A stretch of 15,658 bases of DNA. Source: a virus. The position numbers and the translations under genes were made by a program. The DNA lies in the IMG/VR virus record IMGVR_UViG_3300044508_000090, one strand, 5' to 3'. Under the pieces are notes generated by a model. That model was not told where the DNA came from, ran no database searches, and worked only from the letters and a program-made list of their open reading frames with translations. Shown here piece after piece: positions 8,005 through 8,401 of this stretch. Each line of letters begins with the position of its first letter. Within the stretch, counting starts at the first letter, position 1.

Positions 8005-8060
8005 TCACTTTTAAGAAAATAAATAGACCTCATGATTATTTTTATTTTTAGAATATTTGA

Positions 8061-8088
8061 TTGACAAAAAGATATACAGTGCTATGAT
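8061..8088 (+). promoter_or_regulatory. Consensus sigma70-type promoter, + strand, left end of cassette A
   Basis: TTGACA (8061-8066), 16-nt spacer ...GATATACAGTGC, TATGAT (8083-8088), then leader TTAAAGTGTGGG. A GAGGAG RBS and the 5-codon mini-ORF ATG GTC AAA CGA AGA TAG (8119-8136) follow. Confidence 0.65.
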
Positions 8089-8344
8089 TAAAGTGTGGGC
8101 AGCAGAGGAGACAAGAAAATGGTCAAACGAAGATAGGGGACATAGGCCCCCTGGGGGAGGGGGCGGGGGAGAGGGACTCCCGGCGAAGCCGGGTGGGGAA
8201 GGGGGTAGTGTGTTTTTAGTTCCTAAAAACTGTGAACAGACTTCCCCAGGCCCCGTGGCCCCCGCGTTCGCCGGGTCTAGGCTGCCTCCCCCTCCCTTGT
8301 TTTTGGCCCCCCGCCGCGTCATCGTGTTTCCGTCATCACTCCCT

Positions 8345-8384
8345 CCTCACAATTTAATAGTAGCATTGTGTATCAGAATGTCAA
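8345..8384 (-). promoter_or_regulatory. Consensus sigma70-type promoter, - strand, right end of cassette A
   Basis: - strand TTGACA (8379-8384), 16-nt spacer, TACTAT, leader TTAAATTGTGAGGAGGG. Then the 5-codon mini-ORF ATG ACG GAA ACA CGA TGA (8319-8336, - strand). Confidence 0.65.
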
Positions 8385-8401
8385 TCACTTTATTTGAACT
8401 A

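Follow-up and report, generated by a model that had tools for sequence, protein, structure and literature searches.

Two paralogous, GC-rich, non-coding cassettes, each enclosed by a pair of inward-facing promoters, were found in the window analysed here, a complete 15,658-nt contig from a Joint Genome Institute (JGI) metagenome (IMG/VR record IMGVR_UViG_3300044508_000090). Cassette A occupies positions 8058-8390 and cassette B positions 11899-12230, and in both of them the core lies between an inward promoter on the + strand and another on the - strand. We tentatively propose, with somewhat less than even confidence, that the cassettes represent an early-expressed, convergently transcribed pair of structured RNAs, which would also serve as a barrier between transcription units. 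According to this proposal, a GC-rich core of ~155 nt would be transcribed from both sides by two inward copies of the strong sigma-70 extended -10 early promoter of the phage, with a ribosome-binding site and a mini-open reading frame (mini-ORF) of 5-8 codons behind each of them. Whichever strand is transcribed, the core would adopt one and the same set of four or five hairpins. Two early RNAs, abundant and at least 200 nt long, would result; they would be rich in hairpins and mutually complementary over ~250 nt, each being G-rich in the 5' half and C-rich in the 3' half. These RNAs, singly or as a duplex, would be the functional product, whereas head-on transcription over the very stable core would limit each transcript, as well as the read-through of neighbouring operons into opposing genes.

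Overall organization of cassettes A and B

The two cassettes share a similar architecture. In cassette A, the left promoter (8061-8088, +) consists of the hexamers TTGACA and TATGAT separated by 16 nt, is TG-extended and matches 11 of 12 consensus positions, with an estimated transcription start site at ~8095, whereas the right promoter (8384-8357, -) consists of TTGACA and TACTAT, also 16 nt apart and TG-extended, with an estimated start site at ~8350. In cassette B, the left promoter (11903-11930, +; TTGACA, 16 nt, TACTAT) and the right promoter (12224-12196, -; TTGACA, 17 nt, TATTAT; 11 of 12 positions) have estimated start sites at ~11937 and ~12189, respectively. A stretch of 46 nt of the A right promoter is 89% complementary to the B left promoter. 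The estimated start sites of the two inward pairs are ~255 nt apart in A and B alike, in agreement with a first-pass annotation of this sequence, which had described the promoters as firing toward each other across ~250 bp.

Comparison of 8095-8350 with 11937-12190 revealed an identity of 73.7% over 255 nt (E = 3e-35), including exact blocks of 15-19 nt. Together with the promoter matches, this confirms two further claims of that annotation, namely two paralogous cassettes between convergent near-consensus promoters and long blocks common to both copies. Its GC values of 65-70% against ~50% elsewhere proved slightly too high, although the GC-richness itself is real: the GC content is 62.9% in A and 61.4% in B from start site to start site and 65% in the inner 200 nt, compared to 50.8% for the window. 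The GC-rich core of A (8143-8298) is a multi-hairpin, imperfect palindrome that matches the covariance model of the core with 165 bits, and the core of B (11977-12137) matches it with 166 bits. These are the only two copies in the window, the next match having a score of 13.6 bits. A further diverged copy was considered in the GC-rich region 6300-6700 and rejected, as this score of 13.6 bits was the best obtained there.

Each half-cassette follows the order of promoter, start site, ribosome-binding site, mini-ORF and G-rich arm. The GC skew on the + strand is +0.48 (A) and +0.51 (B) in the left arm, compared to -0.36 (A) and -0.19 (B) in the right arm. With the left arm G-rich and the right arm C-rich on this strand, either predicted transcript would start G-rich and end C-rich. 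Moreover, the whole unit is a loose palindrome, with a self-reverse-complement identity of 55-56% against 49 ± 2% in shuffles. We also noticed that all three CCGG sites of the A core (8180-8194, 8268-8273) are CTGG in B (12013-12033, 12107-12112). The difference is a change of the inner cytosine from C to T each time, a pattern expected from 5-methylcytosine deamination where CCGG is methylated, or from restriction-site loss.

Repeated early-promoter module

The inward promoters are copies of one module of ~45-75 nt that is repeated 11 times within 5.5 kb, with eight copies on the - strand and three on the + strand. The module starts with an AT-rich upstream element, followed by GATTGACA, a conserved spacer, TGC and a -10 hexamer of the TAnnnT type (including TATTAT, TACTAT and TATCTT). 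Its 3' part comprises an AATTGTRAGG start region and a GGAG-type ribosome-binding site, and in most copies the ATG of a small gene lies ~30 nt past the start site. By sequence prediction, the promoter is of the sigma-70 extended -10 type. Window-wide, 27 promoter-like sites were found, compared to 12.5 ± 3.5 in shuffles.

Four of the 11 copies form the two inward-facing pairs of cassettes A and B, and the other seven are solo modules, which are preceded by AT-rich sequence and have no stem-loop. The same module stands upstream of at least seven protein-coding units, and one ATG-less leader enters a tRNA-like element that resembles YrlA, a bacterial Y RNA-like RNA. The promoters by themselves are hence no mark of something special, as the first-pass annotation had taken them to be, since the same module drives at least eight ordinary units. 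As it already heads the tRNA-like, YrlA-like element, the phage probably uses this module for non-coding RNA as well. In addition, a distant relative, contig L174 (JGI 3300031673; kinase of 72% amino-acid identity), carries at 931-1059 the promoter frame GATTGACA-N16-TGCTACCAT-ATAAGTGTA-GAGGAGAG-ATG. Its spacer is unrelated to that of the window, which suggests that the spacer identity among the 11 window copies is probably due to recent duplication or gene conversion and not to function.

Conservation of the cassettes in related strains

Related strains were reached via the DUF5658 gene beside B (a protein cluster at 99% identity) and via look-ups of cluster members, which gave short contigs from other samples. 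Three of them (L181, L182 and L183) carry an orthologue of B, termed B', two (L185 and L186) carry a third variant, B'', and one (L184) carries an orthologue of A, termed A'. The nucleotide identity of these contigs to the window is 87-94%. In related strains, both cassettes occupy the same loci and retain the two promoters intact, the contigs coming from five other samples, so that the element is conserved in relatives, a point on which the first-pass annotation had staked its reading. The -35 and -10 elements of all inward promoters are near-consensus and kept in every orthologue, including those of the A left promoter in L184; for the B left promoter, the stretch from -35 to -10 is identical in L181-L183 and L185.

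The differences among strains are insertions, deletions or replacements bounded by promoter modules. In L181 and L182, an extra small gene is flanked by promoter modules, and L181 has a 65-nt deletion beside a promoter that includes the canonical terminator at 12252-12295. In A' of L184, the stretch from the core to the right promoter is replaced by a different promoter-leader variant with a 49-aa ORF (MKVGSKVKVFGVEGVVVRVEKEGG...). The arrangement of promoter, mini-ORF, core and promoter is older than the A/B duplication (26% divergence), and it is kept in at least three strains.

Hairpin structure of the core

The structure of the core was predicted by RNAalifold from an alignment of A, A', B and B', which are few and related sequences, the structure being derived from the same sequences. 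Essentially the same set of hairpins is predicted on both strands. On the + strand, 95.8% of the cells are paired, compared to 44-57% when the 3' partners are slid by 1-3 columns, and on the - strand the corresponding values are 96.6% and 49-63%. Five pairs are changed on both sides, against 0-1 in the slid versions, and none of 500 shuffles matched the observed covariation score.

The core consists of local hairpins, namely a GCCCCC/GGGGGC helix, a CCCGGC-GAA-GCCGGG hairpin, a central hairpin of 34 nt, a GGCC-CCGT-GGCC hairpin and a variable hairpin in the right arm. An 8-nt insertion in B lengthens the stem of the CCCGGC-GAA-GCCGGG hairpin. Where strains or paralogues differ by substitution, either a loop is affected (GAA/GGC, TAAG/CAAG) or the change is compensated by the pairing partner (C-G to U-A in the helix GCCCCC/GGGGGC). 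RNA folding gave z-scores of -3.9 (+) and -1.3 (-) for A, and -1.8 (+) and -3.6 (-) for B.

The central hairpin differs in orientation between the paralogues. In A (8208-8241), the apical loop reads CCTAAA on the + strand, whereas in B (12048-12081) it reads TTTAGG, the reverse complement of that of A. The two hairpins agree at 30 of 34 positions when one is taken as the reverse complement and at 22 of 34 when compared directly, whereas the flanks align directly. Within orthologues the orientation is the same (33 of 34 positions for A/A' and 34 of 34 for B/B'), which places a single inversion of the apex before the separation of the strains. The apical hairpin of B'' has become GTTTT-TTG-AAAAC through six substitutions in a stretch of 14 nt. 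A hairpin that persists although its loop varies in sequence and orientation points to a strand-symmetric role and speaks against a recognition site that depends on the loop of a single strand.

Coding potential of the cassettes

Neither the frame nor the length of the P/G-rich ORFs is constant among A, B and the orthologues (103 vs 28 aa; 148 vs 56 aa), and the long ORFs of cassette A extend into the promoters. The indels in the core are not multiples of three, and the few changes between B and B' in the longest shared ORF are mostly non-synonymous. From the non-triplet indels, the differences in frame between A and B and the prevalence of non-synonymous changes, we conclude that the core is non-coding. 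The first-pass annotation had likewise seen no believable protein gene in either copy; more homologues did not resolve the core into a conserved protein frame.

Each inward promoter carries a ribosome-binding site and a mini-ORF of 5-8 codons, with the ribosome-binding site and the ATG at the same distance as in real genes. The left mini-ORF of A (8119-8136, +) encodes MVKRR* behind a GAGGAG ribosome-binding site, and its leader and that of gene 10343-10534 share 95% identity. The start ATG GTC AAR CGA is kept in four of five copies (MVKRG* in A', MVKRWEDG* in B' and MVKRW* in B''), whereas in B of the window the ATG is mutated to AGG. On the right side, the mini-ORFs encode MTETR* in A (8319-8336, -; GGAGG ribosome-binding site) and MMKTR* in B (12159-12176, -; AAGGAGG ribosome-binding site), the latter being MRKTR* in B'. 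The pattern M-x-x-T-R-stop is present in all four gene-less right arms, namely those of A and B in the window, B' and B''. The stretches that bear the mini-ORFs evolve faster, with 76-90% identity to L183.

Flanking genes and terminators

The cassettes lie at the 3' ends, on the stop-codon side, of the - strand genes 8402-9028 (A) and 12296-12481 (B), and not at the 5' side of - strand gene blocks as the first-pass annotation had stated. Its claim that the + promoters transcribe antisense into the adjacent genes has to be narrowed too. Between B and gene 12296-12481, a canonical bidirectional intrinsic terminator (12252-12295) was found, which consists of an A-tract, a 14-bp hairpin and a T-tract (-23.5 kcal/mol and z = -5.7 on the - strand; z = -2.6 on the + strand); it probably stops the + transcript of B before 12296-12481. 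L183 and L186 have this terminator, whereas in L181 it is deleted. It is likely to form the 3' end of both the + transcript of B and the - strand operon starting from the promoter at 12781. A compact canonical bidirectional terminator is also found at 13107-13137 of the same contig. Compared to these canonical terminators, the core of ~155 nt is about five times larger, and it has no conserved T-tract in either direction. As a canonical terminator directly abuts B, termination of that operon does not require the core, and this, together with the larger size of the core, the lack of a conserved T-tract and the compact terminators nearby, suggests that the core is more than a terminator. A receives read-through on the - strand from gene 8402-9028, and B receives read-through on the + strand from 11557-11874, with no other terminator between.

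The two - strand genes next to B, 12296-12481 and 12531-12701, are small tandem paralogues that have 32-nt DNA repeats in common. They contain the motifs ...HTVVQIVRF...KTREEARGWARELA... and ...HTVVLAVRL...KTREEARKWAKELA..., respectively. Farther along the window, the YrlA-like element (13269-13365, -) lies ~60 nt downstream of the early promoter at 13460 (-) and upstream of the terminator 13107-13137. It matches the YrlA model with 28.5 bits, which is below the gathering threshold of 69 (local E = 5e-4), and contains a perfect tRNA T-arm, GCGGGUUCGAAUCCCGC, while ARAGORN calls no tRNA. It is probably a tRNA-like non-coding RNA of the phage.

Evaluation of alternative explanations

Several findings weigh against the proposal of a functional RNA pair. 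The covariation rests on four or five closely related sequences of one phage lineage, from which the structure itself was drawn. The comparison of G-U with A-C asymmetry gave no consistent signal favouring one RNA strand, and no conserved 3' end or terminator was found on either strand, the T-runs differing among A, A', B and B' (TTGTTTTTGG follows the core only on the + strand of A, and TTTTT only on the - strand of A'). A search of the cassettes against Rfam 15, including 6S, Y RNA/YrlA and small RNAs, yielded generic matches to miRNA-precursor hairpins of at most 23 bits, compared to gathering thresholds of 70-150. In addition, the identity of the B core to that of L183 is 96.4%, a value that falls among those of the coding sequences on its flanks (88.9-96.5%); conservation of the core is thus no greater than that of the neighbouring genes and gives no evidence of selection on the primary sequence. 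Finally, the 49-aa ORF of L184, which is absent from the window, has an ordinary protein-like composition and stops ~20 nt short of the core, which indicates that the inward promoters can be, and sometimes are, ordinary gene promoters whose units end at the core.

The position of this ORF, exactly between right promoter and core, is as would be expected if the core were a bidirectional barrier shared by two mini units and the RNAs had no function themselves, an explanation that we consider possible if rather unlikely. The small genes of these units would have been lost (on the left and right of A and of B) or would still be present (on the right of A'), leaving promoters and mini-ORFs as leftovers similar to promoter-early stem-loop (PeSL) cassettes. 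The gene-like ribosome-binding site and ATG at every inward promoter, the close likeness of the A left leader to that of a real gene, the indels bounded by promoter modules (the extra gene of L181 and L182, the 65-nt deletion of L181 and the swapped right promoter-leader of L184) and the read-through that A and B receive all fit such gene stubs. However, the stub layout predates the A/B duplication and has intact promoters in all five copies, which is unexpected for neutral debris, although gene conversion among the 11 promoter copies could maintain the inward promoters. The size of the core, its lack of a conserved T-tract and the canonical terminator abutting B also speak against a mere boundary. 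For the RNA pair that we propose, a stronger form can be conceived, in which the sense/antisense RNAs or their ~250-bp duplex would constitute a new family of early phage non-coding RNAs acting in trans; we regard this as unlikely. Such RNAs might occupy a host factor that binds or senses RNA, as a decoy or sponge, or might act globally as an anti-leader RNA. The anti-leader idea stems from the read-through copies, which carry CCUYACAAUU, the complement of the 5' end common to all early mRNAs of the phage.

A role at the DNA level, with R-loops arising as convergent transcription enters G-rich non-template strands, or with hairpins extruded at the imperfect palindrome, making the cassette a bidirectional, transcription-primed replication origin or a hotspot of recombination or inversion, is less probable still and in our view highly unlikely. 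Each promoter reads ~120 nt of a G-rich strand (skew of +0.48/+0.51 in the left arms and, on the - strand, +0.36/+0.19 in the right arms) with G-clusters at a distance of 50-80 nt from its start site, neither strand forms a better structure than the other, and the 34-nt apex was inverted once and remodelled once, implying that the arms interact as DNA. Nevertheless, a canonical G-quadruplex motif is present only on the + strand of A, the cassettes contain no AT-rich unwinding element, and convergent transcription leaves positive, not negative, supercoils between the promoters, as described by the twin-domain model. Moreover, two origins 3.8 kb apart would be unusual, and an array of seven 15-nt direct repeats at 6375-6677 is far more origin-like. 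The 46-nt terminal inverted repeats with 89% complementarity, the two copies and the absence of coding capacity could also suggest a selfish element resembling miniature inverted-repeat transposable elements, with terminal repeats that happen to be promoters. This is extremely improbable, and the 'novel selfish element' of the first-pass annotation is not borne out: the window has only two copies, distant relatives and the public phage and plasmid sets have none, sister strains carry both copies at orthologous sites, the cassette ends show no target-site duplication, and the inverted repeats are the phage's own general promoter, which also occurs as seven solo copies upstream of genes. Just as improbable are protein products, either from the P/G-rich ORFs or from the mini-ORFs alone. 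The mini-ORFs do have strong ribosome-binding sites and are kept in four of five left arms (MVKR...) and four of four gene-less right arms; yet the long ORFs vary in frame and length among the copies and run through the promoters, the ATG of the left mini-ORF of window B is lost, and a 5-residue peptide of variable sequence is an unlikely product. Altogether, the structured RNA or sense/antisense pair already envisaged in the first-pass annotation stands as a reasonable reading of elements that are paralogous, non-coding, structured on both strands and placed at the same loci in sister strains.

Comparison with known systems

The closest parallel is provided by the PeSL cassettes of T4-type phages, in which small early genes are reshuffled as repeated motifs of promoter and stem-loop recombine with each other (Arbiol et al. 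2010, PMC2839356; Comeau et al. 2014, PMC4122927). Similar to PeSLs, a strong sigma-70-like early promoter is found many times among small ORFan genes, together with stem-loops, and where close relatives differ by indels or replacements, these end in the repeated motif (L181/L182, L184 and L181). However, a PeSL is a compact motif with a terminator stem-loop directly followed by one promoter in one orientation (PMC2839356; PMC4122927), whereas the hairpins of our cassettes lie downstream of and between two facing promoters. There are further differences in the core, a paralogously conserved multi-hairpin stretch of 155 nt without a conserved T-tract, in the solo modules without a stem-loop, and in the phage itself, which has no T4 core gene in the window. 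As the composite terminator-promoter motif was looked for and not found, the facing promoter pair around a large multi-hairpin core is a variant beyond PeSL and not a member of it.

Convergent cis-antisense RNA pairs with shared 3' ends are also known from plasmids, including par (RNA I/RNA II, Fst) of pAD1 and prgQ/prgX of pCF10. They resemble the cassettes in having facing promoters a few hundred nt apart, overlapping complementary transcripts (predicted in our case) and a structured shared centre. By contrast, the cassettes are symmetric and duplicated, with no toxin ORF or regulator gene on either promoter and no evident target gene. A small, conserved hydrophobic toxin ORF of the type I toxin-antitoxin (par/Fst) kind was not found in the cassettes, where the ORFs are P/G-rich and the mini-ORFs of 5-8 codons are basic. 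Intrinsic bidirectional terminators share with the cassettes a GC-rich hairpin at the point where transcription from both strands meets, but the core, with ~155 nt and several hairpins, is without conserved A- or T-tracts.

A promoter that reads into sequence whose G-rich RNA could stay hybridised is likewise a feature of transcription-primed origins, including ColE1 (RNA II/RNA I) and oriF/oriG of T4, and ColE1 also has a convergent antisense promoter. Compared to these origins, the cassettes lack an unwinding element, are symmetric and are present as two copies 3.8 kb apart, and the iteron-like array is the better candidate. Finally, the inverted apex is reminiscent of hairpin-mediated minute inversions, as known from non-coding hairpins of chloroplasts and from the flip/flop isomers of viral terminal hairpins. 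In both cases the loop and an asymmetric part of the hairpin are exactly inverted between copies while the flanks are direct; here, however, the inversion is an evolutionary event between paralogues and not a demonstrated ongoing switch.

Genomic context and database searches

The recognisable genes of the window point to a large uncultivated phage. The gene at 122-2668 (+) encodes a protein homologous to the major vault protein (MVP_shoulder, 1e-24; Vault_3, 2e-11), and is adjoined by an RLIG1-type RNA ligase of the phage family phrog_14301 and a phosphoesterase/metallophosphatase. A deoxynucleoside monophosphate (dNMP) kinase, a NUDIX hydrolase and a polynucleotide-kinase-like ATPase are found elsewhere in the window. 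The coordinates of the vault, RNA-ligase, metallophosphatase, NUDIX and ATPase set are jointly 122-2668 (+), 2810-3439 (+), 3811-4344 (+), 9449-9958 (-) and 13608-14372 (-). Together with the Y RNA-like element, the vault homologue, RNA ligase, NUDIX hydrolase and ATPase lend the contig a flavour of RNA repair or ribonucleoproteins. Phage homologues of the vault protein have reportedly been described in a preprint (bioRxiv 10.1101/2023.11.10.566534). The contig of 15.7 kb contains none of the T4 core genes, its gene content being represented by the vault-protein homologue, the RNA ligase and the dNMP kinase, and its part from ~7.3 to 13.5 kb is a typical early region rich in ORFans.

The stretch 5900-7000 (~1.1 kb) has no convincing gene, is dense in repeats and matches no Rfam family. 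The array at 6375-6677 (-) is composed of seven direct copies of the 15-nt unit TGGCAC-N5-TTG(C/A/T), spaced by 134, 66, 24, 25, 24 and 15 nt, and further copies are located at 6956-6970 (-), 6989-7003 (+), 7118-7132 (+), 15445-15459 (-) and 15469-15483 (+). Window-wide, the unit has 13 matches with at most one mismatch against 0.74 expected, and GTGCCA, for which 6.6 occurrences are expected, is found 19 times. The unit is identical to the sigma-54 -24/-12 consensus, and the copies could equally be iterons of an origin or a partition site. Other repeats include 14-nt tandem repeats containing TTCGAA at 5912-5991, with more copies at 4354, 5096, 6049 and 6174, a 33-nt repeat (6126, 6249), an exact 22-nt repeat (4410, 6206), a tandem 21-mer (5189-5230) and G-rich ACCCGGGGGAGGGGTGGGGG repeats at 6390, 6416 and 6677.

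Megablast and blastn searches of the window and both cores against 50,697 GenBank phage records and 72,556 plasmids gave no match, so that the comparison of the core with phage sequences recommended in the first-pass annotation produced no relatives. An exact scan of IMG/VR with an 18-nt block of the core returned chance hits only, as did a scan with a 15-base promoter pattern among the matches listed; a 20-base promoter pattern had no hit in IMG/VR and three chance hits in JGI metagenome contigs. Relatives of the vault protein were found in Myxococcota genomes and in 462-735-kb 'huge phage' records, but those compared (4 viral loci, 40 bacterial ones, mostly of Myxococcota, and 3 huge-phage records) have no cassette and, apart from this gene, nothing in common with the window. 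Homologues of gene 8402-9028 beside A are its own strain variants only, and homologues of the kinase (13608-14372) are found on contigs that share only this gene, L174 having a related promoter with a different spacer. The element is so far confined to one phage lineage. Other identities were considered for the cassettes and rejected: a retron, diversity-generating retroelement or transposon RNA, as the window has no reverse transcriptase or transposase; a tRNA, as ARAGORN finds none; and 6S or Y RNA, as Rfam gives no match.

Implications for large uncultivated phages

Large uncultivated phages are rich in unexplained non-coding sequence, for which the cassette described here provides a concrete and bounded candidate. 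The promoter module offers a ready-made set of very strong sigma-70 promoters, whichever explanation of the cassettes holds. If the core is a boundary element, the PeSL idea that promoter/stem-loop cassettes organise and shuffle early ORFans would extend beyond T4-type phages, and the cassette would represent a novel type of insulator of transcription. If the RNAs are functional, as we tentatively propose, they would form a new family of phage RNAs, and the phage would be one that deliberately makes double-stranded or hairpin RNA right after infection.

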